A stretch of 64,000 nucleotides of DNA from Minisyncoccota bacterium (GTDB lineage: Bacteria; Patescibacteriota; Minisyncoccia; Phycocordibacterales; UBA9973): contig JBAZVG010000001.1 of assembly GCA_041661005.1 (NCBI GenBank), forward strand, positions 479,515 through 543,514, written 5' to 3'. The notes below the pieces were generated by a model. That model had not been told where the DNA came from. It ran no database searches and saw nothing but the letters and a program-made list of their open reading frames with translations. Shown here one piece after another: positions 10,445 to 27,920 of this stretch. A program made the position numbers and the translations under genes. Within the stretch, counting starts at the first letter, position 1. The number at the start of each line of letters is the position of its first letter.

Positions 10445-10533
10445 TGCGGACAGAGTGGGATTCGAACCCACGGTTCTTTTAAAGGAACGGCGGTTTAGTA
10501 AACCGCTGGTTTAAACCACTCACCCATCTGTCC
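10445..10533 (-). tRNA. class II tRNA (Ser-like, G73 discriminator, long variable arm); apparent anticodon loop UUACUAA
   Basis: Reverse complement folds with acceptor GGACAGA/TCTGTCC, T-arm GTGGG-TTCGAAT-CCCAC, 18-nt variable arm and anticodon stem GCGGT/ACCGC; anticodon reads ACU, which is unusual. Confidence 0.55.
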
Positions 10534-10636: not shown

Positions 10637-10725
10637 GGAGCCGTGTCAGAGTGGTCTAACGTACCTCTTTGCTAAAGAGGCAGGGGCTTCAAAACCCCTC
10701 GGCGGTTCGAATCCGCCCGGCTCCG
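10637..10725 (+). tRNA. tRNA-Ser(GCU)
   Basis: Acceptor GGAGCCG/CGGCTCC, anticodon stem CCTCT/AGAGG with loop TTGCTAA, long variable arm, T-loop TTCGAAT, G73. Confidence 0.8.
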
Positions 10726-10885
10726 CAAATTTGAACGTAGTGAAAACTGCGGAACGGCCCTAATATACTCAAGTATATTAGGGAGGATTCGAACGGCGAA
10801 ATGTAAAATTTTCAGCAGAAAATTTTATGAGTCGGTGCCCAGACAAATTTTTTGTGACGACAATAAATTTAGTCGAGGGAGAAAT

Positions 10886-14217: not shown

Positions 14218-14446
14218 CTTGTCCTCTTATCTTAACCTTTGCGCGAACCTTTTTCGAGAATCAAATGAAGTAATGCGCACGCTCCGCGTGCATCATTTCT
14301 CGAAAGCAATTACTACGCTCTGATAATGTGGTAACTCAATGAACTCCGCCACGCGCGATTACGCGCGTCTGCCCTCGCCTCGCCACCGTTTCCATGCATA
14401 TATTATTTCGCGGGGGTTTCTTTTGATTTGGTATGGGTGGCGGGCG
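14218..14446. repeat. left terminal inverted repeat of island (GC-rich, about 229 bp)
   Basis: Plus strand here is the near-exact reverse complement of 25925-26152. Confidence 0.75.
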
Positions 14447-14940
14447 AGGTCAGGTTTCTTCAAAGAAGAAACGGCGAAATTCAAAATACAAATTCAAATC
14501 ATTGTCTCGGGCATTATACCATTTTTCTATTTTGGTGGTCACGCAAAGTTTTGAGGTGCACCCTCGGCATTCGCCTCGGGCATTTCCGCTAGGGCTACGA
14601 GTGCCTAGATGCCTATGAGCGGGCAAGCAAAATAACCGAACGGCTCAAATACCAGTAAATGAGCCGTTCACTCGATTGCCCGCAACTTCTTGGGGAGAGG
14701 AAGTTTCCTCTCCCCGGGTCGGGCTACTCTGGGATTACCCAGAGTTCTGCCCTCGCCATCCCCACTCTACGTTTTTCAATATTGTGTTTAGTGTGTAGCT
14801 TTCGCTTTCGAGAATGCATTTCAATTCGGGTCAGGCACTCGTCCTTTAGCCGTGGCCACCCTAGCGGAAATGCCCAAGGCGGAAAATGCAAATGCACTTG
14901 ACCCACCCACCCATTCGCGTGCAAATTTTCGCCGTGAGGA
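14446..14940 (+). ncRNA. GC-rich hairpin-dense noncoding segment (candidate structured RNA or recombination site region)
   Basis: GC far above the window average; nested hairpins gcgggcaa[gaacggctca..tgagccgttc]ttgcccgc, ggggagagg/cctctcccc and ctctggg/cccagag; long-range complement gggcatttccgctaggg (14579) with ccctagcggaaatgccc (14856). Confidence 0.3.
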
Positions 14941-15135: not shown

Positions 15136-15804
15136 TTATATTTCAGAATAAAATACTGAATGCCCAGTTTTTCCGTTCTGTTTTATTTTTCCTTCTTTCT
15201 CTAATTGTGAAAGGTATCTAGTTGCAGTTGCATCAGACACATGCAAAAACTTTTCTACTTCGTCGTTGGTGACTCGTGGTGAGCTTGTCGAACCATTTTT
15301 ATTTTCAAACAAAGACATGACACGATCTAGTTTCTTTCTTTTTCTGAATTGAATCGCATTTCTAGCTGTGATTAGAAGTTCGCGAGCTAGATTAGATTTA
15401 GGTTGCTCACTCACAGGCTTCGCCTGTTCGTTTTGAGAAGTTTCCGGTTCTTTCAACGGCTCATTTACTGGTATTTGAGCCGTTGGAGGTTCAATAGCTT
15501 GGACGGGTTCAAAAACTGACTCAATTGAGGGTTCATTTGTCCCGTTAGAGGTAGGATTTGCTTGCATATCCGTTGGCTCTAATGGGATTGCTTCTTCTGG
15601 TGTAGGGGTAGAATTTGAGGGTGGTATATTAGTACTTTCATCACTAAAACCCTCCCTAGAAGCTTCCGGGGCTTCAGGAAGCACTTCGACAGGCTCGGAA
15701 TCTATGGGTGGAATAGGTGCATCAGCCATAGGCTCTTGGGGGCTTGGTGGAATAGAGTTTTCTTCGGGAATTGGTTTTTGGGTTGTATTTTGTTCGTCGG
15801 ACAT
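15136..15804 (-). CDS. Pro/Glu-rich disordered protein with C-terminal winged-HTH
   Basis: Low-complexity PEPS-rich N-terminal 150 aa; C-terminal VSDATATRYLSQLEKEGKIKQNGKTGHSVFY is wHTH-like. Confidence 0.4.
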   Translation of the reverse strand: MSDEQNTTQKPIPEENSIPPSPQEPMADAPIPPIDSEPVEVLPEAPEASREGFSDESTNIPPSNSTPTPEEAIPLEPTDMQANPTSNGTNEPSIESVFEPVQAIEPPTAQIPVNEPLKEPETSQNEQAKPVSEQPKSNLARELLITARNAIQFRKRKKLDRVMSLFENKNGSTSSPRVTNDEVEKFLHVSDATATRYLSQLEKEGKIKQNGKTGHSVFYSEI

Positions 15805-17189: not shown

Positions 17190-19541
17190 TTAATAATTTA
17201 AAGAGTATAAATAATCCATCATCTCAGTAGCAAAATTACGAACATCTTCATCGTTATTTGAAGTGAAAATATGAGAATCAGAATTTAGATTATTCCTAAA
17301 CCCATGAAGTTTTGTTTTTACTTCTTCTTTTCCCTCAAAAATTCCATCAATCATTTTTTCTAAACTACTACAATCTACTTTTTTATCTTGTATCTGTTTA
17401 GCAAAGATAGTTGGAAGGTATAAATTTTCTAAAAATGGCCTTAAATCCGTTTTTATAGATTCAGATTGTGATCTATTTATAAACTCATAAATTTTCATAA
17501 AAACTTTTTCATAATCACTCATAGTGTATACATTTCGTTCCGACAAAACTAAAGAACTAGTTGCATCATCTTTTTTGATTTTTAGATACTTTGTTGTTAT
17601 CTGTGAATCTTTTGTAATTTCACAAAATCTTTTTATAAAATTAGGGTAATGAGTTAATATTATAATTTGACTGACTTGACTTATCGTTTCTTTAAAAAGA
17701 TTTATACTATAAGTGGTTCTATTGTCATCAAAACTCGTCATTGGGTCGTCTAATATAATTACCATTTTCTCTTTTTCTGCTTGTTCTTTTAAGTCTATTT
17801 TAACCCAAAAAATAGCTAAGGCTAAAGTGCGTCTGTCTGATTCACTAAACACAGATTTTAATTGATCGTTAGATATTTTTACATTATGAAATTTTACTTT
17901 CAAAGAGTAGACGGGCATGTGTCCCTGATTATTAGTATCTTTTTCAAGGGTAAAATTCTTACTTCCAAGTTTTTTAAATAAATCATTTATTTGAGTAAAG
18001 TAATTTACTAAATACTGAGATTGATCTCCCTCCAAACGACTTTCTAACACAGAAATTTCTGCCTCTGATATAGTAATTTCTTGTTGTATTTTTATGTAAT
18101 TAATACAATCTTGGTCTTGGTCAATTCTTGCCTTTTTATATTCTAATTCTTCAATTTCACTTATTAAAAAATCGACACCCTGCTGAATCGTTACGATATT
18201 TTCGTACTGTTTTTTAAAAGCTTTTATTTTTACCGAAAGTTCATCAATTATTTCTTTTATATTTATAAGGGATTGGTTATATTCAAGATATATTGTTTTA
18301 AAATGTGAAAAGTCAATAATGTCCACTCTCTTATATGGGCACTTACTTTTTAGATCTTGACTTGATTCTATGTTTTTTAATATTTTGCCTTTTTCAACAC
18401 TTAAATCCTCTTCTTGTAGTAAATCTATGTTTGTTTGTAGTTCAATCAATTTAGCTTGAAAAATTTCGTCGCTTATAAATTCTTTGTATTTATTGAATCC
18501 TATTAGAACAGTTTGTAAAATTGTTTTTTGAGCGAAGGTAAAATTTTCAATTTCTCTATTTTTGCTTTCTAATTCTTTGTCAATTCTACTTATAAAATCA
18601 TTGTAAACCTCATCGAAATATGAATCATAAATATTTATTAAATCTTGAGCATTATGAAGAAATTGACCACAAAACGGACAACCATCTTTTGTTCTATCCT
18701 TACAATAATGTAAGCCTGCTTTTATCCAATTTTCAGCGTTATCTTTAGAAGAAAAATTGTCAAATAAATGTTTATTTAGCTTTACTAATATATCTTCCTT
18801 AATACTTGAGTAGTCCTCTTGTAGTAAAGTATTTATCATTTCAAGTAATTCTATAATAGTAAAAGTTGGTAAATAAAATTCGTTTGGCTCCTGTAATTGC
18901 GATATCTTTTGTGGCTCCTTTAAACGTTCTTGTTCCTTCTGTAATGCGATTTTCTTTTGAGGCAAAATATTTTCAATATTATCTTTTTCTAACCCCACAA
19001 TAGAAAATTCCAAGAATTTTATGATTTCAATATCTATCTTATCTTTTACGAAATTTGGTACTTTTGTCTTTAATTCTCTTTTTTTATCTCCTGTTTCTTT
19101 TTTCTTTTTTGCAATTTCTTTTGCAAGTTTTACGCTTTGCTCTCCAAGAATAAACTGGGTAAAGTTTTCCTTGTTTTCTCTTCCAATATTTAAACCAGTA
19201 AATAAATTTTTATGAATAAAATCAGTGTCAAAAACCTCTAAATACTTTGACAGATCATTTTGGGTCCAATTATCATGTTCAAACATGATATCGTTTTCTA
19301 TCTCTTCTTTAACAGAAAAAACCACCTTCTGTTGTCCTGTCTGTGCTGGAATTGTTTTTCTATCTTGAATAATTTTAGGATCATTGTCTTTTAAAGATTG
19401 GAAAATATCTGTCAAAGTAGTTTTTCCATAAGTATTAAAACCATAGATAAAAGTTAGTTTTTCAAAACCCAAAGAAGCTCCATTTGTGAAATTGGAAAAT
19501 GTACCTATATTTTTAATTTCTTTAATGCGAGCTATTTTCAT
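17190..19541 (-). CDS. AAA_13 / RloC-like Rad50-type ABC ATPase with coiled-coil zinc hook and possible C-terminal anticodon-nuclease-like domain
   Basis: N-terminal KLTFIYGFNTYGKTTL Walker A in an SMC-like context; central coiled coil with CPFCGQ; Walker B IILDDP; H-loop ILTHY; C-terminal LRPFLE...KLHGF resembles an R-x3-E...H triad. Confidence 0.5.
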   Translation of the reverse strand: MKIARIKEIKNIGTFSNFTNGASLGFEKLTFIYGFNTYGKTTLTDIFQSLKDNDPKIIQDRKTIPAQTGQQKVVFSVKEEIENDIMFEHDNWTQNDLSKYLEVFDTDFIHKNLFTGLNIGRENKENFTQFILGEQSVKLAKEIAKKKKETGDKKRELKTKVPNFVKDKIDIEIIKFLEFSIVGLEKDNIENILPQKKIALQKEQERLKEPQKISQLQEPNEFYLPTFTIIELLEMINTLLQEDYSSIKEDILVKLNKHLFDNFSSKDNAENWIKAGLHYCKDRTKDGCPFCGQFLHNAQDLINIYDSYFDEVYNDFISRIDKELESKNREIENFTFAQKTILQTVLIGFNKYKEFISDEIFQAKLIELQTNIDLLQEEDLSVEKGKILKNIESSQDLKSKCPYKRVDIIDFSHFKTIYLEYNQSLINIKEIIDELSVKIKAFKKQYENIVTIQQGVDFLISEIEELEYKKARIDQDQDCINYIKIQQEITISEAEISVLESRLEGDQSQYLVNYFTQINDLFKKLGSKNFTLEKDTNNQGHMPVYSLKVKFHNVKISNDQLKSVFSESDRRTLALAIFWVKIDLKEQAEKEKMVIILDDPMTSFDDNRTTYSINLFKETISQVSQIIILTHYPNFIKRFCEITKDSQITTKYLKIKKDDATSSLVLSERNVYTMSDYEKVFMKIYEFINRSQSESIKTDLRPFLENLYLPTIFAKQIQDKKVDCSSLEKMIDGIFEGKEEVKTKLHGFRNNLNSDSHIFTSNNDEDVRNFATEMMDYLYSLNY

Positions 19542-19543
19542 AA

Positions 19544-21052
19544 TTATTCTTCCCCTTCACCCAATTCTAATCTTTTTATCTGCGGCAAGGCCACCAATCC
19601 ACTCAAATCACCATACATACCAACTGTATTAGTAATTACTTTTTTAATTTGTTTTTCTCTTTCTGACCAAATTTTTTCGTAAGCTAACCTTTCTTTCTTT
19701 AATCCGTTATCCATACCTGTAAAAGCTTCAACTATTGCTTCTACTCTTTGTTTAAACTCTATACCTGTTAAATAAGCGTAAAGTATTTCCATTTTATCAT
19801 TTTTACCAACGGACATTGTTTTTTCCCTTGTTACAGATTCTAAATTTACTCGCAAGGCAGTTGCAAGAGCTGTAGCAAGTTTTATGTCACAAATCCACAC
19901 ACCATCACGAAAACCAAAGCCTTTAATGTCTCCTGGTAGCGTGATAGAAACTATAACAGCAATTTCAGCCTTCATAATCCTTTGATCATCTTTTAATTTT
20001 TGTATCCATCCTTCACTCCATGCTTTGGTCTTTTTTGATTCCCACACAATTTGACCACAATATTTACCAGATTGATTCTGAACCTTTTGTATGATATCGG
20101 CTCCACTTACTCCTTTCGGAACTGGAGATATTTCATCAAAAGGAAATTCAGATCTTAAAAGATCCTCCAACTCAAGCTCCAACACTTCTCCTTGTGTTTG
20201 TTGTGAACCCTGTTCAAGCTTACGAGAAAGTTCGTCTTTTGCCTTAGTAGCATCAGTTAAACGTTTCTCTAGTTGTGCAATAATATACTTCTGTTCTTCA
20301 TTTGCTTTTTTACTAGCTTCCTCTATTATTTGTTTTCTTTCTATATCCAACTGTCTTTGTTTTTCTAACTCAAAGTTTTGTTTATCTTCTTCAAGTTTAT
20401 TTTTCTCTTTGCGCAAATCCAGCTCTTTTTTGTTTGCTTCTTTCAGTTTGATATCTTTCTCTTCTAATTGTTCCTGAAGTATTTTCTTGTCTGCTTCCTT
20501 TTCTTTTTCTGCCTCCTCTATTTGTTTTAATAATTTTATAGAATCTCTCTCGCTTTGTTTTACGGCACGAGCAAAAGCTTCTTGCTCTATCCCTTTACGC
20601 TCAGCATCGATTATTTTTGCTTTTTCCACCTCAAAATTTTTCTTTTCATCCTCAAATTTCTGCCTACTTGCACGAGCTTTTAAAGATTCAGTGTTTGCCT
20701 CATCCAACTTTTTATCTTTTTCTTTCATTTGTTCTTCTAACAACTTAACTTCAGCTGCTGTTTTCTTTTCAGCTGCTGTTTGTGCTTCTTTCCATAGTGT
20801 AATTTTTTCCACTGCAAGTTTTTCTGCCACTTTTTTACTGACTTCACTTTGTGTGTTTTTCTGTAATTCTTCCAATTTTATTTTTTGTTCTTCTATTTCT
20901 TTTCTCTCTTTTGCCATTTCTATTTCCTTTAGCTTGTTTTCTTCACTAATTTCCTTCTTTATATTTTCTTCAATTTGATGCGTTAATACATCATCAATTG
21001 ATATTGCTGTTTTACAATTGGGGCAGATAATATTTTTTGTATCGTTTTTCAT
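19544..21052 (-). CDS. DUF2130-like coiled-coil protein with N-terminal zinc ribbon and C-terminal PD-(D/E)xK-like domain
   Basis: CPNCK at the N-terminus; about 250 aa of K/E-rich coiled coil; C-terminal GADIIQ...IVWESKKTK. Confidence 0.45.
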   Translation of the reverse strand: MKNDTKNIICPNCKTAISIDDVLTHQIEENIKKEISEENKLKEIEMAKERKEIEEQKIKLEELQKNTQSEVSKKVAEKLAVEKITLWKEAQTAAEKKTAAEVKLLEEQMKEKDKKLDEANTESLKARASRQKFEDEKKNFEVEKAKIIDAERKGIEQEAFARAVKQSERDSIKLLKQIEEAEKEKEADKKILQEQLEEKDIKLKEANKKELDLRKEKNKLEEDKQNFELEKQRQLDIERKQIIEEASKKANEEQKYIIAQLEKRLTDATKAKDELSRKLEQGSQQTQGEVLELELEDLLRSEFPFDEISPVPKGVSGADIIQKVQNQSGKYCGQIVWESKKTKAWSEGWIQKLKDDQRIMKAEIAVIVSITLPGDIKGFGFRDGVWICDIKLATALATALRVNLESVTREKTMSVGKNDKMEILYAYLTGIEFKQRVEAIVEAFTGMDNGLKKERLAYEKIWSEREKQIKKVITNTVGMYGDLSGLVALPQIKRLELGEGEE

Positions 21053-21079
21053 ATTTTTTAATTTTATTAATAAATTTTC

Positions 21080-24000
21080 TTAAACTGCTTTTGTCCCACG
21101 ACAATAAGGAAACTTTGAACATCCATAAAATTTGCCTCTCCTTCCATTTCTTAAAATCATTTTTGATCCACAGCGCGGACAATCTTTATCAGAAAGTATT
21201 GGCACTGGTCTATCATTTCTCGAAATTCGAGATAGACCTTTACAAGTCTTGCAAAAGCGTCCGTAGCCACGGATTAGAGTTGGGTCTTTAAAATCAACTA
21301 AATCCCTTATCTCGCGACATTTTGGACATTCTTTTTTATCTCCATTGTGCAAGCCCTCAATCGTATTCTGAATACCGTTTAAAACAGCATTGTTTTGTGT
21401 GCGATAATTTTTAAACAAACTCGTGATTCTTTCATTAAGCGTTGTAACAGGGTTAGAACCAACATTGAATTTGTTAATTCGCAAGAATTTATATCCGTAA
21501 CTCTCCAAAACTTTCTGACGATAAACATCATCTTCAGAATAATAGTTTTCATAATTAAACTCATTTGCCTCGTCGAGATCGTTAAAATGTTCTGTAAATC
21601 CATCATACTCAATGATAATCTTGTGTTCTTTTTGGTTTTCATCTTTATACACAAGTAAAAAATCAACTTTATAGTGAGGATGTTTATAAGTCCTATCAAG
21701 TTGTTTTAGATATTTTCCAATTTCAAATTGAGGGAAGAATTCAATATTTTCTTTATTATTTTTCCAAAAATCTGTATCATAAAACCATTTTAAAACCTTA
21801 GGTTCCATTTTTGATTTTTGATCCACTTCAGAAATTTCGTGTTCTTTCTTCGCTTCCTCAAGAATAAAATTATAATGTCTTAAAGCATCTCCAATTGAAC
21901 CTGTAAATTTATCAAGTGGCTTACTAAGCACAAAGTGTACAGTTTCTTTAGCCCGACTAAATCCAACATTGAGGCGTTGAACTTTTATTTTTCCATCTTC
22001 CTCACTATCAACGCTATTAAAATCTTTTATAAAGACACCCCACAATCTATCAGAGTTTTCATTTGCAACCATCGAATAGAAAATAATATCTCGTTCTTCT
22101 CCCTGACAAGTATCAAAAGTCATTATTTTTAACTTCAGATTTTCAAAGTAAAAATCTCGTTCAGGTAATTTACTGATGGCCTCCATAAGCAATTTCTGCT
22201 GATTGGTGTGTGGCGTGATAATACCTACACTTTCGGTCTTGTTGTTTTCATACATTATCTTTAATTGTCCAACTATAAAATCAATCTCGGCTTTATTACT
22301 ATTTCCAACTAGCTCGTCTTTCCCGTCGTGGTCAACGAAACTAAATTTAACAACATCAGCAATTTTTTTACCCCTAATCTTCATTACTTGAAGACTGTCC
22401 TGATAAAAATACTTATTCGAGTAAGAAATAATTTCTTTGTATCCACGAAAATGTTTCAAAAGTTGCGTGTTGTAATTTGTTATAAATTCAAAAAATTCTA
22501 GTATTGAGGTCTTGATGTCAAATTTCCCAAGCTTCACTATTTTAGAATCTTCTTCTGATACTTGATCGCGAAATACTTGCGCCAAGGAATTTAAGTACTC
22601 CCGATTTGTTTCAGACCGAGCTTGTGCCGCCTTAATGTTACTGAATTGTTTTCTATCCCCGAGAATAAGCACCTTTTTCGCTCGAATCAAAGCGGGAAAA
22701 GCTTGTGCAATACTAACTTGTGATGCTTCATCAATAATAACCAAGTCAAAAAGTCCTGCATGCAAAGGAATGTATTCTGCGTAATCTCTGATTCCGGCAA
22801 GTATGCAAGGGAAAGCGTCTTTGAGTTTAAGAAATTGCTCTTTCGGAAACTTCATTTTATTTTTAATAACTTCTCTTAAAGTTTCCGCATCTGCTTTGTT
22901 GTTATTATAAAAATCAATAAGGCGAGTATCTAAAACATGAGTAACTTGCGTAGTTACCAAAGTTTCCAACTCTTTCTTCTGTCCCATATAACTCAATGTC
23001 GGGATTAACCCGAATTTAGCAACTATGGAACCCTTAAGTATTGCGTAGCGTGTTGCTTTATCAAAGTCCAAGCTAGTCATTTTAACAAGCTTGCTGTCTA
23101 ACATTTCTGAAAAATTGTCTTTCGAGATTTTTAACTTTTTTATTGAATGAGGGTATGAATCTAATTCTTGCAAGAGCGATAAAAAGTCCGTCTCGAGAGA
23201 AAGTACCTTTTCTTTATTTTCACTAAAATTACTACCCGTCAATATTAGTTTAGATAAAATTTCAATATGATCAATCCCCAAATGTGAAATTGTTTTTGCT
23301 TGCTCTTTTAAGGCATTATAATAATCACAAATCTCTATAACTCGTTTAAAGTTTTTTATATTTTCATTAGGATTTTGAAAATCTGACAACGGAAATAGTT
23401 CCCTAAATGAGTTATTTAAAGTCTGAACCTTAGAACTGCTGAACAGGTATCCAAAAATAGGTATTCTGGTTTCATCATAAGATCGAGTCCACTTTTTGAG
23501 CTCGTTTAAGTCTTTGTGAGAAAAAACTTTGAAACGAGATAGTATCTGAACATCTTGATTAAATTTCAAAGAGACATCTTCCACAATTTGATAATAAGCG
23601 GTAAGAATACGTAATGTGTCTAAAAACATCTCACTACTTTTTAATGTTTCTAGTTTTACATTCAATATTTCTGATAAGTAATCGTTTTTAAGAATGTCGG
23701 GCAAAGATAATAATAAAGACCTTAGATCATCGAAAAAGACGACAGCGTTTTCATTCTCGGATAACTCATCAAGATCAAAATCATATTGCCTTGAAGAATA
23801 AAATTCCTCTAGCCCACAAAATTCAGTTATTTCCCGAAGATCAATATCAGAATACGCTAATGCTTCTACTTCAATATCTTCTTTCAAAGAATTCGATAAT
23901 TTGGAAATATTTTCCTCAATCGAAGAATAATCTTTTTGTACTGCTCTATGGTGAGTTTTAATTTTTTCTATAGAAGACTTTGCAAGAATTTGACCATAAG

Positions 24001-25642
24001 TATTCCCTGTTTTTCCAAGCCTTAAAATTGGATTTTGAAAATTCTCCTCATCAAAACGAACTCTATTCATAGTTTCAGTTATCTTGTCCTCAACAACATC
24101 AAGTGCTTCTTTTTTATCAGAAAGTACAAGTACTGATTGATGATTAAGAATTGCATCAAATATAATTGCGGTGATCGTATGACTTTTACCCGTACCCGGA
24201 GGGCCTTCAACTGTTATATATTTGCATCCATCTTTTCTTATTGCTGACAATATCTGTATTTGTTCACTGTTAAGAGGAATCGGGCTTGTTGAGACAAGTT
24301 TATCGGGAACCGATGTATCATCCCACTCCCTTTCAACTTCAGGATTTATAGGCTTTGGATTTTTGTGAATAAAATCATCAACTAATATGTTGAATATCTT
24401 GGCAAGTTCTCCTTCTCCATTACTTAGCTGTTGCAAGATTTCCTCATAGTCATTTACAAGGGCTTCATCTGATTTATCAAATAACGAAAGATACACTGAG
24501 TTAGAAGTTCTAACGCTTAGGCTTTTTGCTTGTTGGGGGTCTTTTGAATCAAGGTCAATATTTTTATTTAACCCAAAAAGATTTGTGATTTCATTAAGAA
24601 TTTTTTCAAGTGTATCATTAACACGCTCTGTTTCTTGCGATAAATAAATAATGCGTTCAGTAATACTTTTAAGATTACCCTTTGCACCAGTTTCTTTGTT
24701 GTACTCTTGCACAATAAACTCAAGAGCTTTTTTGTTTATGTATATTTGAGAATCAAATTCAATATGAAATATATCGTTATCCCTCTTTAGAGAAAATGGT
24801 GTATAAAAGATTGGATATTTTACTTTATTAAAACTAATATCGCAGAAATAAAGATAGAATTCTTGTTTATCTAAAATTGCTCTGTTTTTATCAATTTCAA
24901 AAAGTTCGCTGAACAAATCTCCGACTTGAAACGACTCAAAAAAGTTTGTGATAGTGTTTTTTGTATCATTTAAGTCAATAACTGATTTAAGCTCTTTTTG
25001 AATATTAACTTTCTGTTTAGAAATTAAAACTTTCAAAAGTTCAGAAACTTTATTTTCGGTGATATTTAAAAAAACTTCGGCTAGCTCTTCTTCCATTAAA
25101 AATATATCGTTCTCGTCGCCAATACCAAGACTTTCTATTGATTTTTCAATACTACTGACAAATGGAAGGACTAGGAATGTTTTGATATGTAATGAAACTG
25201 CTTCAAGGGTTATGGTCAAAGCCTTCTCGTATTCTTTTGAATACAGGGTCGCTGATTTTTCAAGATCATCAGTTATGGCATTAATTAACTCATTGATTTG
25301 AGAACTTTGAATTTTACCAACTTGCAAAGTTATTAGATCTAAAAGATTTTTTGGAAGATTACTACGATATACTCCTTTACTGATTGTACTTAAAACACTC
25401 TTGTCAAAACCGTGAGTAACTAATTTCCATATATCCTTTGTGAAAGATGGATATTTTGAAAGATTTATGCCGACAAGCAAATTATCGTTAGTTCTATATT
25501 TGACTGATCGTTTTGGATTTTTTCTCTTATGAAAATCTGTCTCAAGAAAATCCATGAAATACTTAGCAACCTCTTTAACAAAGGCGAGATTGCCAGTAAG
25601 GCTAGTGTCTAATCTTTTTTCTTGTGAATTATTTTCATTCAT
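21080..25642 (-). CDS. SF1 (Upf1/Dna2-like, AAA_11/AAA_12) helicase fused to DUF559/Vsr-like endonuclease and topoisomerase-type C4 zinc ribbon; N-terminal DUF4011-like region
   Basis: GPPGTGKSHT, DLVIIDEASQ, LILGDRKQ, TFDTCQGEERDIIFYS; KVDFLLVY..IIIEYDGFTEHF..YGYKFLRIN; CPRCGSKMILRNGRRGKFYGCSKFPYC. Confidence 0.65.
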   Translation of the reverse strand: MNENNSQEKRLDTSLTGNLAFVKEVAKYFMDFLETDFHKRKNPKRSVKYRTNDNLLVGINLSKYPSFTKDIWKLVTHGFDKSVLSTISKGVYRSNLPKNLLDLITLQVGKIQSSQINELINAITDDLEKSATLYSKEYEKALTITLEAVSLHIKTFLVLPFVSSIEKSIESLGIGDENDIFLMEEELAEVFLNITENKVSELLKVLISKQKVNIQKELKSVIDLNDTKNTITNFFESFQVGDLFSELFEIDKNRAILDKQEFYLYFCDISFNKVKYPIFYTPFSLKRDNDIFHIEFDSQIYINKKALEFIVQEYNKETGAKGNLKSITERIIYLSQETERVNDTLEKILNEITNLFGLNKNIDLDSKDPQQAKSLSVRTSNSVYLSLFDKSDEALVNDYEEILQQLSNGEGELAKIFNILVDDFIHKNPKPINPEVEREWDDTSVPDKLVSTSPIPLNSEQIQILSAIRKDGCKYITVEGPPGTGKSHTITAIIFDAILNHQSVLVLSDKKEALDVVEDKITETMNRVRFDEENFQNPILRLGKTGNTYGQILAKSSIEKIKTHHRAVQKDYSSIEENISKLSNSLKEDIEVEALAYSDIDLREITEFCGLEEFYSSRQYDFDLDELSENENAVVFFDDLRSLLLSLPDILKNDYLSEILNVKLETLKSSEMFLDTLRILTAYYQIVEDVSLKFNQDVQILSRFKVFSHKDLNELKKWTRSYDETRIPIFGYLFSSSKVQTLNNSFRELFPLSDFQNPNENIKNFKRVIEICDYYNALKEQAKTISHLGIDHIEILSKLILTGSNFSENKEKVLSLETDFLSLLQELDSYPHSIKKLKISKDNFSEMLDSKLVKMTSLDFDKATRYAILKGSIVAKFGLIPTLSYMGQKKELETLVTTQVTHVLDTRLIDFYNNNKADAETLREVIKNKMKFPKEQFLKLKDAFPCILAGIRDYAEYIPLHAGLFDLVIIDEASQVSIAQAFPALIRAKKVLILGDRKQFSNIKAAQARSETNREYLNSLAQVFRDQVSEEDSKIVKLGKFDIKTSILEFFEFITNYNTQLLKHFRGYKEIISYSNKYFYQDSLQVMKIRGKKIADVVKFSFVDHDGKDELVGNSNKAEIDFIVGQLKIMYENNKTESVGIITPHTNQQKLLMEAISKLPERDFYFENLKLKIMTFDTCQGEERDIIFYSMVANENSDRLWGVFIKDFNSVDSEEDGKIKVQRLNVGFSRAKETVHFVLSKPLDKFTGSIGDALRHYNFILEEAKKEHEISEVDQKSKMEPKVLKWFYDTDFWKNNKENIEFFPQFEIGKYLKQLDRTYKHPHYKVDFLLVYKDENQKEHKIIIEYDGFTEHFNDLDEANEFNYENYYSEDDVYRQKVLESYGYKFLRINKFNVGSNPVTTLNERITSLFKNYRTQNNAVLNGIQNTIEGLHNGDKKECPKCREIRDLVDFKDPTLIRGYGRFCKTCKGLSRISRNDRPVPILSDKDCPRCGSKMILRNGRRGKFYGCSKFPYCRGTKAV

Positions 25643-25646
25643 AAGT

Positions 25647-25853
25647 TTATTTCAAAAGTTCATTAGTAGAAACATTTAATGCTTTTGCTAACTTTGCAAT
25701 TGTCGAAAGCGTTGGGTTTGTTTTGCCACTTTCAATATTACTAATAAAACCACGACTAACACCAAGGGAACGAAAAATATCGCCTTGCGTTAAGCCCTTG
25801 CTGATTCTGATGCGTTTCATGTTTTTGCCAAGCTTTACCGACTCAGTTTTCAT
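25647..25853 (-). CDS. XRE-family HTH transcriptional regulator
   Basis: LTQGDIFRSLGVSRGFISNIESGKTNP HTH_3 motif; start taken at the internal Met (MKTES), because the 5' extension runs into the inverted repeat. Confidence 0.6.
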   Translation of the reverse strand: MKTESVKLGKNMKRIRISKGLTQGDIFRSLGVSRGFISNIESGKTNPTLSTIAKLAKALNVSTNELLK

Positions 25854-25877
25854 TATCCACAGTATAGCTCTTGCTAC

Positions 25878-25886
25878 ATTATACCA
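25878..25886 (-). promoter_or_regulatory. extended -10 element TGgTATAAT upstream of the XRE gene
   Basis: Reverse complement reads tgtggtataat about 25 nt upstream of the ATG. Confidence 0.4.
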
Positions 25887-25924
25887 CAATATTATATTAT
25901 AATGTAATAGATGGAATATACCCA

Positions 25925-26152
25925 TCGCCCGCCACCCATACCAAATCAAAAGAAACCCCCGCGAAATAATATATGCATGGAAACGGTGGCGAGGCGAGGG
26001 CAGACGCGCGTAATCGCGCGTGGCGGAGTTCATTGAGTTACCACATTATCAGAGCGTAGTAATTACTTTCGAGAAATGATGCACGCGGAGCGTGCGCATT
26101 ACTTCATTTGATTCTCGAAAAAGGTTCGCGCAAAGGTTAAGATAAGAGGACA
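25925..26152. repeat. right terminal inverted repeat of island
   Basis: Reverse complement matches 14218-14446. Confidence 0.75.
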
Positions 26153-26164
26153 AATTGAGACATC

Positions 26165-26265
26165 AGTGAAAAAATCGGTCGCGCGCTTGCGCGCAATAAT
26201 GGAAAGGGGGTGGGCGAATTCCGAACCCATCTTCTCCGCAAATGCGAATTCGGTGGGTGGGCAAG
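26165..26265. repeat. inverted repeat copy flanking the recombinase gene (partner 27735-27835)
   Basis: Reverse complement of ttgcccacccaccgaattcgcatttgcggagaag...ccattattgcgcgcaagcgcgcgacc is present at 27735-27835. Confidence 0.65.
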
Positions 26266-26320: not shown

Positions 26321-27871
26321 ATGAACAAACCAAAATATTTTCTATACGCGCGAAAGTCAACGGAAGATGACGACAAACAAGTCATGAGTATTGAAGCTCA
26401 ACTTTTTGAGCTTCGTGAATTCGCGCGTAAAGAAAATCTGCAAATTCTTGAGGAATTTACAGAATCAAAAAGCGCAAAGAAACCTGGTCGTGAAAAATTC
26501 AGCGTGATGATGGGTAAAATTGAAAGTATGGACGGTGTAGGTATTCTCGCTTGGCATCCGGATCGTTTAGCGAGAAATAGTATTGACGGTGGACGCATCA
26601 TTTACGCTGTGGACACTACCAAAATAGTTTCTTTACGCTTTCCAACATTTTGGTTTGAACCCACCCCGCAAGGGCTGTTTATGTTGCAAGTGGCGTTCGG
26701 GCAATCCAAGTATTATTCCGACAACCTCAAGCAAAATGTTGAGCGAGGAATCCGCCAAAAATTAAGACGTGGCGAATGGCTAGCCTTGGCTCCTCGTGGC
26801 TTTGTGAATAATCCAAAAACAAAAAATATTGAACCCGATCCGGTGGTGGCAAGAATAATTGTGCAAGCATATAAAGAATTCGCCACGGGAAAACATAATT
26901 TTCCAACGCTTTCAAAATTTTTGGCGGATTTAGGCATGGTCGGAAAAAATGGAACGCCACTTTACAAATCTGCCGTCAGTAATTTGCTTTCCAATAAAGC
27001 ATACATCGGTTTGGTAAAGCATAAAAATGAATGGCATGCCGGCAGTTTTACGCCAATTATTTCTCCCGATTTATTTGAAGCCGTGCAGAAACGTTTGAAA
27101 GAACGAGCAAGGCCTCGCAAAACAAAAGTTGGACACAATTTTCCTTTTACTGGACTTTTTCGTTGTGGTGAATGTAATTGTATGATTTCAGCACAATGGG
27201 CGAAAGGTCGCGGAGGTTTGTACCGGTATTATCGCTGTACGAAAAAAGCAGGAGAAAATTGTTCACAAGGATATTTGCAAGAAAAATTGCTCGTCTCTCA
27301 AGTAAAGGAACGACTTCAACAAATCGCACTTCCCGACGAATGGACCAACTGGATGCTGAAACAAACTGACACATGGGAAAAAGAAGAAAAGTTTTCGTCG
27401 GGAAGTAATCTCGGACAAATCAAAGACGATGAGCAAGTAATACAGCAAAAGCTCGACGATTTAATTACGCTTTATCTCGATGGCGATATTCCGAAAGAAA
27501 ATTATCTCGCCAAAAAGGACGAGCTTTTGCTGAAAAAAGTCTCGCTCACGAAAAAAATTGATTCTGCCCGACACGAGAGAAATAATTGGGTCGAACCCTT
27601 GCGGGAATGGATTTTAGATATGAAAAAAGGTGCCGAATTGGTTTCGTCTTCCGATTTTTACGAAATTCGTGATTATTTGAAAAAAATCGGAACGAACCCT
27701 CGGATGCACGACAAATCCGTCTCTGTCTCATTTTGCCCACCCACCGAATTCGCATTTGCGGAGAAGACGGGTTCGAAATTCGCCCACCCCCTTTCCATTA
27801 TTGCGCGCAAGCGCGCGACCGATTTTTTCGCTGAAGTTTCGTCTTGTCCGCCTGCTACGATTCGAACGTAG
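26321..27871 (+). CDS. large serine recombinase (site-specific integrase/invertase)
   Basis: N-terminal resolvase catalytic domain YARKSTEDDDKQVMSIEAQ, recombinase domain, zinc ribbon CGECNC..YYRC and coiled coil; 516 aa; the 3' end overlaps tRNA-Ile. Confidence 0.7.
   Translation: MNKPKYFLYARKSTEDDDKQVMSIEAQLFELREFARKENLQILEEFTESKSAKKPGREKFSVMMGKIESMDGVGILAWHPDRLARNSIDGGRIIYAVDTTKIVSLRFPTFWFEPTPQGLFMLQVAFGQSKYYSDNLKQNVERGIRQKLRRGEWLALAPRGFVNNPKTKNIEPDPVVARIIVQAYKEFATGKHNFPTLSKFLADLGMVGKNGTPLYKSAVSNLLSNKAYIGLVKHKNEWHAGSFTPIISPDLFEAVQKRLKERARPRKTKVGHNFPFTGLFRCGECNCMISAQWAKGRGGLYRYYRCTKKAGENCSQGYLQEKLLVSQVKERLQQIALPDEWTNWMLKQTDTWEKEEKFSSGSNLGQIKDDEQVIQQKLDDLITLYLDGDIPKENYLAKKDELLLKKVSLTKKIDSARHERNNWVEPLREWILDMKKGAELVSSSDFYEIRDYLKKIGTNPRMHDKSVSVSFCPPTEFAFAEKTGSKFAHPLSIIARKRATDFFAEVSSCPPATIRT
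27735..27835. repeat. inverted repeat copy (partner of 26165-26265); encodes the C-terminus of the recombinase
   Basis: See the partner repeat at 26165-26265. Confidence 0.65.
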
Positions 27872-27920
27872 GACCCTCTAGGTATAAGCTAGATGCTCTA
27901 ACCAACTGAGCTACAGGCGG
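27847..27920 (-). tRNA. tRNA-Ile(UAU)
   Basis: Reverse complement CCGCCTG-TA-GCTC-AGTTGGTTA-GAGC-A-TCTAG-CTTATAC-CTAGA-GGGTC-CTACG-TTCGAAT-CGTAG-CAGGCGG-A; Ile-type D-arm; anticodon TAT. Confidence 0.65.

Follow-up and report, generated by a model that had tools for sequence, protein, structure and literature searches.

Gene organization at the locus

The window, by which we mean the whole 64,000-nucleotide stretch of DNA that was analyzed, contains a seven-gene minus-strand run, with gaps of 1–36 nt, that includes a gene for an RloC-like protein (Table 1). An earlier note on this DNA had read this gene as an RloC-type ATPase from its motifs, and the open reading frame and every motif listed there are present where the note placed them. 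The IMG product name of the gene is "wobble nucleotide-excising tRNase," which is the COG name for RloC. The DUF2130 protein encoded next to it belongs to a family assigned to PD-(D/E)XK (PMC3424549), and its CPxC and D...ExK residues are invariant in seven homologues. The 1520-aa helicase gives partial matches to the MkoC, MkoA, Hhe, and ProA helicase cores. The probable start of the HTH gene is M61 of the listed open reading frame, the upstream 60 codons being read-through of an inverted-repeat arm, and 67-aa homologues head the cassette in two related loci (L001 and L085).

The RloC-like gene is low-GC cargo on a mobile element that bears a serine recombinase and is flanked by inverted repeats. 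An inverted repeat of 229 nt is accompanied by a second repeat pair that is 93% identical. Misassembly of the MAG was considered as the origin of the 229-nt repeat and is unlikely for the layout as a whole, because of the 93% identity of the second pair and because L085 shares the same layout. The element also carries a covarying RNA-like element of ~300 nt, which has no Rfam match.

Table 1. Genes and protein features of the locus, with positions in the window. Conservation is given as the number of 199 full-length relatives that keep the residue.
Feature	Position	Strand	Basis or remark
RloC-like gene, 783 aa, ATG start	17190-19541	-	ORF; NCBI MFA6076969.1, Candidatus Paceibacterota MAG
ABC-ATPase head lobe I, residues 1-113	19203-19541	-	Beta-rich in AlphaFold2 model; best Foldseek matches Rad50/SMC heads
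Walker A GFNTYGKTT, G34-T42	19416-19442	-	K40 199/199
Q-loop, Q71	19329-19331	-	Q71 183/199
Outgoing helical arm, residues 121-280	18702-19181	-	DSSP helices in full-length model
CxxC zinc-hook motif C288-P-F-C291, within CPFCGQ (288-293), apical loop 281-295	18669-18680	-	Both Cys 199/199
Returning helical arm, residues 296-524	17970-18656	-	DSSP helices
ABC-ATPase head lobe II, residues 530-666	17544-17954	-	RecF/Rad50 profile matches; conservation
Signature-like SESDRR, S566-R571	17829-17846	-	S568 and R571 199/199
Walker B/D-loop, I595-D605 (IILDDP at 595-600)	17727-17759	-	D598, D599, and D605 199/199
H-loop LTHY, L629-Y632	17646-17657	-	H631 199/199
C-terminal HEPN-fold domain, residues 670-783, predicted RNase (ACNase-like) module	17193-17534	-	
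R701-P-F-L-E705, in LRPFLE (700-705)	17427-17441	-	R701 199/199, E705 192/199; equivalent of PrrC R320-x3-E324 and GkaRloC R692-x3-E696
R749-N-N-L-N753-S-D-S756-H757	17271-17297	-	Equivalent of PrrC R349-I-I-N352-F-T-S355-H356; HEPN R-x-H type with one extra residue
H746 of KLHGF (744-748)	17304-17306	-	Not a catalytic candidate
DUF2130 protein, 502 aa: CPxC zinc ribbon, coiled coil, PD-(D/E)XK-type domain	19544-21052	-	Pfam DUF2130, E 1e-64; occasional family partner
SF1 helicase (AAA_11/AAA_12), 1520 aa; weak REase_MTES_1575 match, C-terminal Top1-type zinc ribbon	21080-25642	-	Pfam
Small XRE-type HTH gene at the head of the operon	25647-25853	-	HTH_3, E 7e-17

Overall architecture of the RloC-like protein

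Conservation was counted over 199 full-length relatives, whose identity with the window protein ranges from 25 to 100%, with a median of 43%. The AlphaFold2 model of the full-length protein (mean pLDDT 83.8) predicts two ABC head lobes (residues 1–113 and 530–666), split by an antiparallel helical arm of ~400 residues (121–280 and 296–524) with the putative CxxC zinc hook at its tip (281–295), followed by a helical C-domain (670–778). The low pLDDT of the 281–295 loop is as expected for a monomer modeled without zinc. Residues K40, C288, C291, R571, D598, D599, D605, H631, and R701 are invariant in all 199 relatives.

In Foldseek comparisons the full-length model matches Rad50 best (E 1.4e-12), and Rad50, SbcC, and SMC proteins share with the window protein the split ABC head, the long antiparallel helical arm, and the apical CxxC hook. 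They differ from it in having no C-terminal HEPN domain and in working with an Mre11/SbcD phosphoesterase, a gene for which was not found near the RloC-like gene in Pfam scans of the operon. The Rad50-type similarity in sequence is confined to the region from the signature to the H-loop: NCBIfam RecF and PDB RecF/Rad50 profiles match residues 554–636, a phmmer search with the window protein against PDB sequences gave zero matches, and the family profile reached only the Walker-B regions of RecF and Rad50 in the PDB. Pfam AAA_13 covers residues 12–763 (E 5e-37) and is also found in genuine EcoPrrC. The closest database model is PDLC04895 of the PADLOC candidate PDC-S06 (E 2.8e-193), which aligns residues 3–780 with positions 2–778 of its 784 and so spans the C-domain too. 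PDC-S06 is a computational candidate comprising several HMMs of AAA_13-type proteins, and its other models match only the ATPase part of the window protein; no functional test is reported in the papers that mention it.

The C-terminal domain and its putative catalytic residues

The C-terminal region, for which the earlier note had suggested an anticodon-nuclease domain, is predicted to adopt an all-alpha HEPN fold, the fold to which the PrrC and RloC nucleases have been assigned (Anantharaman et al. 2013). Its closest structural matches are HepT-type toxins, Csm6, Csx1, RnlA, and LsoA. A Foldseek search of the C-domain against the PDB gave no significant match. A profile of the C-domain run against 1.84 billion representatives recovered just 219 proteins, all of the long architecture or fragments of it. 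Matches of 394–455 aa in this search were considered as PrrC-like proteins and rejected, as they are N-terminally truncated fragments that begin inside the coiled coil.

The Arg-Glu-His triad proposed in the earlier note is retained for its R-x3-E part and revised for its histidine. The histidine of KLHGF, H746, is kept in 153 of the 199 relatives (31 of 37 among the closer ones) and is replaced elsewhere by Leu, Asn, Gln, or Asp, compared with 194 of 199 for H757 in the LNSDSH motif. The third triad residue is, on the pattern of conservation and spacing, the putative catalytic H757, with a Ser before it and N753 upstream, as in PrrC and as described for RloC. N753 is present in 193 relatives, R749 in 174 with Lys in a further 14, and S756 in 113, and the spacing in the window protein is R701-x3-E705-x51-S756-H757. 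The R749-x7-H757 arrangement lies just outside the canonical HEPN Rx4-6H and compares with R349-x6-H356 in PrrC, the N-x3-H core having identical spacing in both. Pfam AAA_13 places PrrC H356 and window H757 in one model column, which is only suggestive, since the isolated C-domains of the window protein and of PrrC match no model in Pfam scans. A counterpart of PrrC H295 was sought in a partly conserved His ~10 residues before R701 and dropped, as the family varies at this position and the window protein has Gln there.

Comparison with RloC

[quoted passage not shown] The window protein has 783 aa, the ABC motifs, a helical insert with a CxxC loop, and R-x3-E-x51-SH, and the organization that the earlier note had recognized (ABC head, coiled-coil CxxC hook, Walker B and H-loop, C-domain with R-x3-E) is conserved in the 199 relatives and agrees with the AlphaFold2 layout. 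The match to RloC is based on residue numbers and motif rules taken from the literature. GkaRloC from Geobacillus kaustophilus (YP_146738) agrees with the window protein in domain order and in size class (804 versus 783 aa), and its landmarks, compared by published residue numbers, are colinear with those of the window protein (K44, C291, D572, R692, E696, and H737 versus K40, C288/C291, D598, R701, E705, and H757). Beyond the His, the window protein continues for 26 residues and GkaRloC for 67. Because the exact landmark positions of GkaRloC were found in 0 of 266 retrieved relatives, and because the Glu-His spacing is 51 in the window protein versus 40 in GkaRloC, the sequences place the window family, as it appears, in a sister subgroup of RloC rather than as a close orthologue of GkaRloC. 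The GkaRloC gene also lies on a mobile element, an IS4-family transposon beside an hsdR relic, and the host of the window protein is, unlike that of GkaRloC, a CPR bacterium.

Comparison with PrrC and other ABC-HEPN proteins

EcoPrrC, recovered through its published LARP peptide as L082:767-1957, served as the positive control; the PADLOC PrrC model matched it at 6e-148 and left the window protein unmatched even at E<=10. The PrrC homologues used were all at least 76% identical, resulting in a shallow profile (Neff 1.5). The earlier note had drawn a likeness to E. coli PrrC. Full-length hhalign of the two families (probability 86%, E 5e-6) covers the head lobe II region and co-aligns N352, S355, and H356 with N753, S756, and H757; the two R-x3-E motifs are not co-aligned, and the C-domain alone gave no significant match to the PrrC nuclease domain (residues 262–396) with this shallow profile (E 0.52 and 0.13 by hhalign, 0.3 bits by hmmsearch). 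PrrC residues R320, E324, R349, N352, and H356 are among six nuclease residues reported as essential and as conserved in RloC, and the counterparts of these five are kept in 174–199 of the 199 relatives. PrrC resembles the window protein in AAA_13, in alignable ATPase motifs, and in having R-x3-E and R..N-x3-(S)H among its nuclease residues, and differs in its size (396 aa, the PrrC type being about 340–416 aa), in lacking the ~400-residue coiled-coil/zinc-hook insert, and in a Glu-His spacing of 31 versus 51. PrrC also carries the PrrC box and LARP, its tRNA-recognition peptide. LARP is absent from RloC, and in the hhalign comparison the LARP segment aligns to unrelated residues of the window family.

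Two further groups, APECO1_4465 and ERFG_01251 (Anantharaman et al. 2013), resemble the window family in combining an ABC ATPase with a C-terminal HEPN domain and in their location on mobile islands or prophages. Membership in RloC proper rather than in one of these groups is favored by the CxxC insert and by agreement with the R-x3-E...SH rule. When E. coli and plasmids were searched by way of a Yersinia homologue, "AAA family ATPase" genes turned up in E. coli, none of them in APEC O1.

Genomic context of related genes

The relatives are spread patchily across unrelated phyla and occur within restriction-modification (R-M) loci and defense islands. Among 81 related loci, an hsdM homologue is present in 27, an hsdR homologue in 21, DUF2130 in 4, and the helicase in 1. 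Some relatives are embedded as hsdM-hsdS-gene-hsdR, as is known for prrC and rlo genes; prrC itself is part of an EcoprrI-like hsd locus of type Ic, and many relatives of the window protein are likewise found between hsdS and hsdR. No hsd genes are present among the annotated operon neighbors in the window (Pfam scan). Other relatives lie beside SIR2, Abi_C, or RhuM/Fic genes. DUF2130 adjoins the RloC-like gene in L001, L010, L017, and L045, which with the window makes five loci, with 32–68% protein identity and both gene orders represented. A helicase-DUF2130 core also exists without the RloC-like gene in L084–L086, where the third genes are unrelated. The window operon is a mosaic produced by recombination, each of its genes having a different closest relative. 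The earlier note overstated the link with a helicase-nuclease, which is not a family trait.

Proposed function

The gene probably encodes an RloC-family protein, with an ABC-ATPase head, a zinc-hook arm, and a HEPN-fold RNase domain, that likely acts as a tRNA-cutting abortive-infection defense. GkaRloC, described by Davidov & Kaufmann (2008) and by Klaiman et al. (2012), has a DNA-dependent ATPase, and hook mutations such as C291G deregulate its nuclease. By analogy with GkaRloC and E. coli PrrC, the head would dimerize and, together with the zinc-hook arm, serve as sensor and switch, such that a signal linked to phage or DNA damage would turn on the HEPN site formed by R701, E705, R749, N753, and H757. 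This site would cut RNA metal-independently, most likely in tRNA anticodon loops, and so halt translation. What the analysis shows is the architecture, the conservation of the motifs, the HEPN fold, the linkage of the family to defense islands and restriction genes, and the place of the gene as mobile-element cargo. We infer that the protein is an RNase, that tRNA is what it cuts, what sets it off, and whether it cooperates with the DUF2130 nuclease and the helicase.

A HEPN RNase of the same build could act in defense on mRNA or rRNA instead of tRNA anticodon loops, in the manner of RnlA/LsoA or activated Csm6/Cas13, which would fit the nearest structures of the C-domain (HepT-type toxins, Csm6, Csx1, RnlA, and LsoA, with no solved anticodon nuclease), the absence of LARP from RloC and its alignment to unrelated window residues, and the departure from the Glu-His spacing of GkaRloC. 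We consider this unlikely, as PrrC and GkaRloC, both of the studied proteins with the ABC-HEPN build and residue set, are tRNA anticodon nucleases. HepT toxins, moreover, also act on tRNA. A function directed at DNA, in which the protein would be mainly a Rad50/SbcC-like ATPase of a complex with the DUF2130 nuclease and the SF1 helicase-nuclease and its HEPN domain would be regulatory or bind nucleic acid, could draw on the tight spacing of the seven genes, the intact D...ExK of DUF2130 and its recurrence in five loci including the window, the Rad50 match, and the partner DNase considered by the RloC authors themselves by analogy with Mre11/SbcD (PMC2610378). It appears improbable given that the HEPN catalytic residues are near-invariant throughout the family, with or without DUF2130, that DUF2130 is missing from 77 and the helicase from 80 of the 81 related loci, and that the helicase-DUF2130 pair also exists without the RloC-like gene, the window operon being a mosaic. 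The Rad50/SMC-like head and coiled coil would likewise suit a housekeeping DNA repair protein of the SMC/SbcC type that takes no part in defense, a reading made very improbable by the patchy distribution across unrelated phyla and the locations inside R-M loci and defense islands, the status of the gene as low-GC cargo on a recombinase-bearing element with inverted repeats, the extra HEPN domain that Rad50/SbcC lack, and the absence of an Mre11/SbcD-type phosphoesterase gene among the operon neighbors in the Pfam scans.

The preferred reading, an RloC-type tRNase, leaves current understanding of RloC and PrrC unchanged. The RloC family is already described, and the gene, carried by a mobile element in a bacterium of the candidate phyla radiation, is a fairly ordinary find. 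If the reading holds, even very small genomes of CPR bacteria (Paceibacterota) carry an RloC-type, translation-disabling suicide nuclease as acquired mobile cargo. Real potential for discovery lies only in the recurring DUF2130 pairing and in the carrier element's structured RNA, which is unannotated. The pairing allows the speculation, which we consider unlikely, that the RloC-like ATPase-RNase and DUF2130 form a two-part system, an analogue of Rad50-Mre11/SbcCD that has an RNase of its own. In this system a signal from DNA ends or DNA damage would drive cleavage of both DNA and RNA, and the SF1 helicase-nuclease would extend it in the window and L001. Such a system would supply the "missing partner DNase" on which the discoverers of RloC speculated, and would be a multi-gene defense system not included in PADLOC v2, found in CPR bacteria on a serine-recombinase element with its own structured RNA.

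The PDLC04895 match suggests that PDC-S06, or at least this model, represents RloC-like ABC-HEPN proteins, which would connect this candidate with a mechanism that has been studied by experiment. The residue map from the 199 sequences fixes K40, C288, C291, R701, E705, R749, N753, and H757 as targets for mutation and excludes H746.

Family assignment and residue conservation

The minus-strand ORF at 17190-19541 is genuine: it opens with ATG and encodes 783 aa, and every motif named in the earlier note lies within its product (Table). The identical protein in NCBI, MFA6076969.1 from a Candidatus Paceibacterota MAG, bears the product name "AAA family ATPase", and the IMG product name, "wobble nucleotide-excising tRNase", is the COG name for RloC. 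Pfam AAA_13 matches residues 12-763 (E 5e-37) and the PADLOC candidate PDC-S06 (model PDLC04895) matches nearly end to end (residues 3-780, E 2.8e-193). Davidov and Kaufmann (PMC2610378) defined RloC by ABC motifs resembling those of PrrC, by a helical insert whose central loop carries CxxC, and by a C-proximal Arg-X3-Glu-X36-52-His, often with Ser before the His, and gave a size range of 658-897 aa. All four points are found in the window protein, whose C-proximal part reads R701-x3-E705-x51-S756-H757. It is another RloC-type protein, already so named by an automatic pipeline, and the earlier note placed it in the right family.

The published landmarks of Geobacillus kaustophilus RloC (GkaRloC, 804 aa), K44, C291, D572, R692, E696, and H737, are colinear, when compared by published residue numbers, with K40, C288 and C291, D598, R701, E705, and H757 of the window protein. 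The exact GkaRloC numbering was found in none of the retrieved relatives and the Glu-His spacing is 51 in the window protein compared with 40 in GkaRloC, so that, on sequence grounds, the window family is best placed inside RloC as first defined, as a subgroup that is not closely orthologous to the enzyme studied.

Conservation was assessed in a first alignment of 37 homologues (40-78% identity) and a second of 199 full-length relatives (25-100% identity). All 199 relatives keep K40, C288, C291, S568, R571, D598, D599, D605, H631, and R701; near-invariant are H757 (194), N753 (193), E705 (192), and Q71 (183), and R749 is present in 174, with Lys in 14 more. The proposed nuclease triad keeps its Arg and Glu, but its third residue had been assigned to the KLHGF histidine, H746, which is retained in 153 of the 199 and is the wrong one compared with H757.

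Comparison with PrrC

A genuine Escherichia coli PrrC, obtained from a viral contig by searching its published LARP peptide, has ten of ten published essential residues in the correct positions and is matched by the PADLOC PrrC model at 6e-148. That model does not match the window protein even at E<=10, and Pfam AAA_13 is common to both proteins, so that the window protein is not a PrrC, yet is a member of the same broad family. Meineke and Shuman reported PrrC residues H295, R320, E324, R349, N352, and H356 as essential and conserved in RloC; five of the six have conserved window counterparts (R701, E705, R749, N753, and H757), with identical N-x3-(S)H spacing and one extra window residue from Arg to Asn. 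When the PrrC family was aligned with the window family in a relaxed hhalign run (probability 86%, E 5e-6), PrrC N352/S355/H356 co-aligned with N753/S756/H757; the R-x3-E motifs did not, their distance to the His being 31 versus 51 residues. The C-terminal domains alone showed no significant similarity (hhalign E 0.52 and 0.13; hmmsearch 0.3 bits), which agrees with the "manual adjustment" needed in the original RloC paper (PMC2610378) to locate the C-proximal motif, and neither isolated domain was recognised by any Pfam model. Against 1.84 billion representatives, the window C-domain profile matched only 219 proteins, nearly all of ~780 aa with a C-terminal match, or fragments of such proteins.

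Genomic context and proposed function

The 81 related loci include 27 with an hsdM homologue close by and 21 with an hsdR homologue; several are ordered hsdM-hsdS-gene-hsdR, the position also taken by prrC and by the Campylobacter rlo genes. Further neighbours include SIR2_2, Abi_C, and RhuM/Fic genes. In four loci (L001, L010, L017, and L045) the RloC-like gene adjoins a DUF2130 gene, and the large helicase is found in L001 only. At L017:10001-12050 (Patescibacteria MAG) a 67%-identical RloC-like gene, following hsdM, RhuM/Fic, and DUF2130 genes, is split into ORFs of 169 and 459 aa, through either pseudogenisation or a frameshift error in sequencing.

The window operon is a tight run with intergenic gaps of 1-36 nt. 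DUF2130, included in a PD-(D/E)XK superfamily listing (PMC3424549), shows, in seven homologues, an invariant CPxC and a retained D...ExK signature; PADLOC v2 holds no model for it. Besides the window, other CPR genomes carry the HTH-helicase-DUF2130 core, and its third genes vary: the RloC-like gene in the window and L001, in L084 a 584-aa unknown and an ABC protein, and in L085 and L086 AAA_33, NUDIX, and methyltransferase genes. The window is a mosaic at the DNA level, its helicase being 90% identical to L085/L086, its DUF2130 gene 94% to L084, and its RloC-like gene 80% to L004. Given these varying third genes and mosaic identities, the helicase link is a local, modular arrangement and not a family property. 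The pairing with DUF2130 has been seen repeatedly enough to merit testing. The core with its variable downstream genes is a possible unlisted defence module.

The architecture, conservation, fold, and context observed here point best to an RloC-type abortive-infection effector, with activity, substrate, and trigger taken by analogy from GkaRloC and PrrC. The sensor and switch would be the ATPase head and zinc-hook arm; RNA, most probably tRNA anticodon loops, would be cut at the HEPN site (R701, E705, R749, N753, and H757). A rival reading keeps this site and gives it another RNA substrate. Another would place the protein, together with DUF2130 and the helicase, in a complex that targets DNA. 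A housekeeping repair role is a further rival. The observation in the earlier note is confirmed and its interpretation partly supported, the coupling to a helicase-nuclease having been overstated.

Carrier element and structured element

The operon block is low in GC (29-33%, compared with 37-43% around it) and is bracketed by 229-nt inverted repeats, 100% complementary by the repeat tool and 99.6% by blastn, which could be the ends of a mobile element or the bounds of an invertible segment. The first 60 codons of the listed ORF 25647-26033 are read-through of one repeat arm. A second inverted-repeat pair, 117 nt long, encloses the large serine recombinase gene, next to tRNA-Ile(TAT). This arrangement is shared by L085, whose recombinase is 77% identical and whose own cassette is also flanked by similar inverted repeats. 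The low GC, bracketing repeats, and recombinase layout show the RloC-like gene to be the cargo of a mobile or invertible element that bears a recombinase, a parallel to the GkaRloC gene in its IS4-family transposon.

Features of the window protein, its operon and the carrier element (window coordinates unless a residue or related locus, L, is given)
Feature	Position	Strand	Remarks
GFNTYGKTT	residues 34-42
CPFCGQ	residues 288-293
IILDDP	residues 595-600
LTHY	residues 629-632
LRPFLE	residues 700-705
KLHGF	residues 744-748
Operon gene 1, XRE-type HTH		minus
Operon gene 2, 1520-aa SF1 helicase		minus	AAA_11/AAA_12, weak REase match, Top1-type zinc ribbon
Operon gene 3, DUF2130		minus	CPxC, coiled coil, intact D...ExK
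Helicase + DUF2130 part of core	19544-25642
Operon gene 4, RloC-like		minus
Operon gene 5, 152-aa ORF		minus
Operon gene 6, TPR protein		minus
Operon gene 7, 222-aa wHTH protein	15136-15804	minus
Inverted repeats, 229 nt	14219-14447 and 25925-26153		11.5 kb apart; bracket whole defence operon
Inverted repeats, 117 nt	26148-26264 and 27733-27849		93% identical; bracket recombinase gene
Large serine recombinase, 516 aa	26321-27871	plus
tRNA-Ile(TAT)	27847-27920	minus	beside recombinase; 3' end abutted by right arm of 117-nt pair
GC-rich conserved element, ~300 nt	14551-14902, core 14576-14877	minus (operon strand)	just inside left 229-nt repeat arm
~300-nt element, other copies	L001:12465-12777; L085:11120-11473; L087-L108

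The ~300-nt element, also present in L001, L085, and 22 metagenomic contigs, folds much better than shuffled controls (z -9.5). In 25 copies the paired fraction of cells is 96.4%, and 16 pairs show compensatory changes; the covariation score is 0.200, compared with 0.107 +/- 0.006 for shuffles (0/500) and 0.04-0.07 for slid controls, the closing helix being uninformative because the 17-nt termini were constants of the search pattern. Its G-U pairs are valid on the operon strand only, and a search of Rfam 15 gave no match. The element may be a structured RNA, not yet annotated, that belongs to a CPR mobile element; alternatively, it may serve as a recombination site at the DNA level. In the 22 contigs it accompanies homologues of the 222-aa wHTH protein (10/22) and of the serine recombinase (5/22), not the defence genes. 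In the 222-aa protein a Pro/Glu-rich N-terminal half precedes a C-terminal winged-helix domain; the homologues match the C-terminal half, mostly lie ~100-200 nt or less from the element, and make the protein a candidate partner (regulator or recombination directionality factor).

The sequence AACGGCTCAAATACCAGTAAATGAGCCGTT, a perfectly palindromic hairpin of 30 nt, occurs twice, at 14639-14668 inside the element, as a variable stem absent or replaced in other copies, and at 15455-15484 within the sequence coding for the 222-aa protein. Elsewhere in the window, two divergent tRNA-Ser genes lie ~100 nt apart (10446-10533, minus; 10637-10726, plus), with anticodons called ACT and GCT by ARAGORN; an ACT anticodon (AGU-reading, unmodified A34) would be out of the ordinary, and the call may be wrong.
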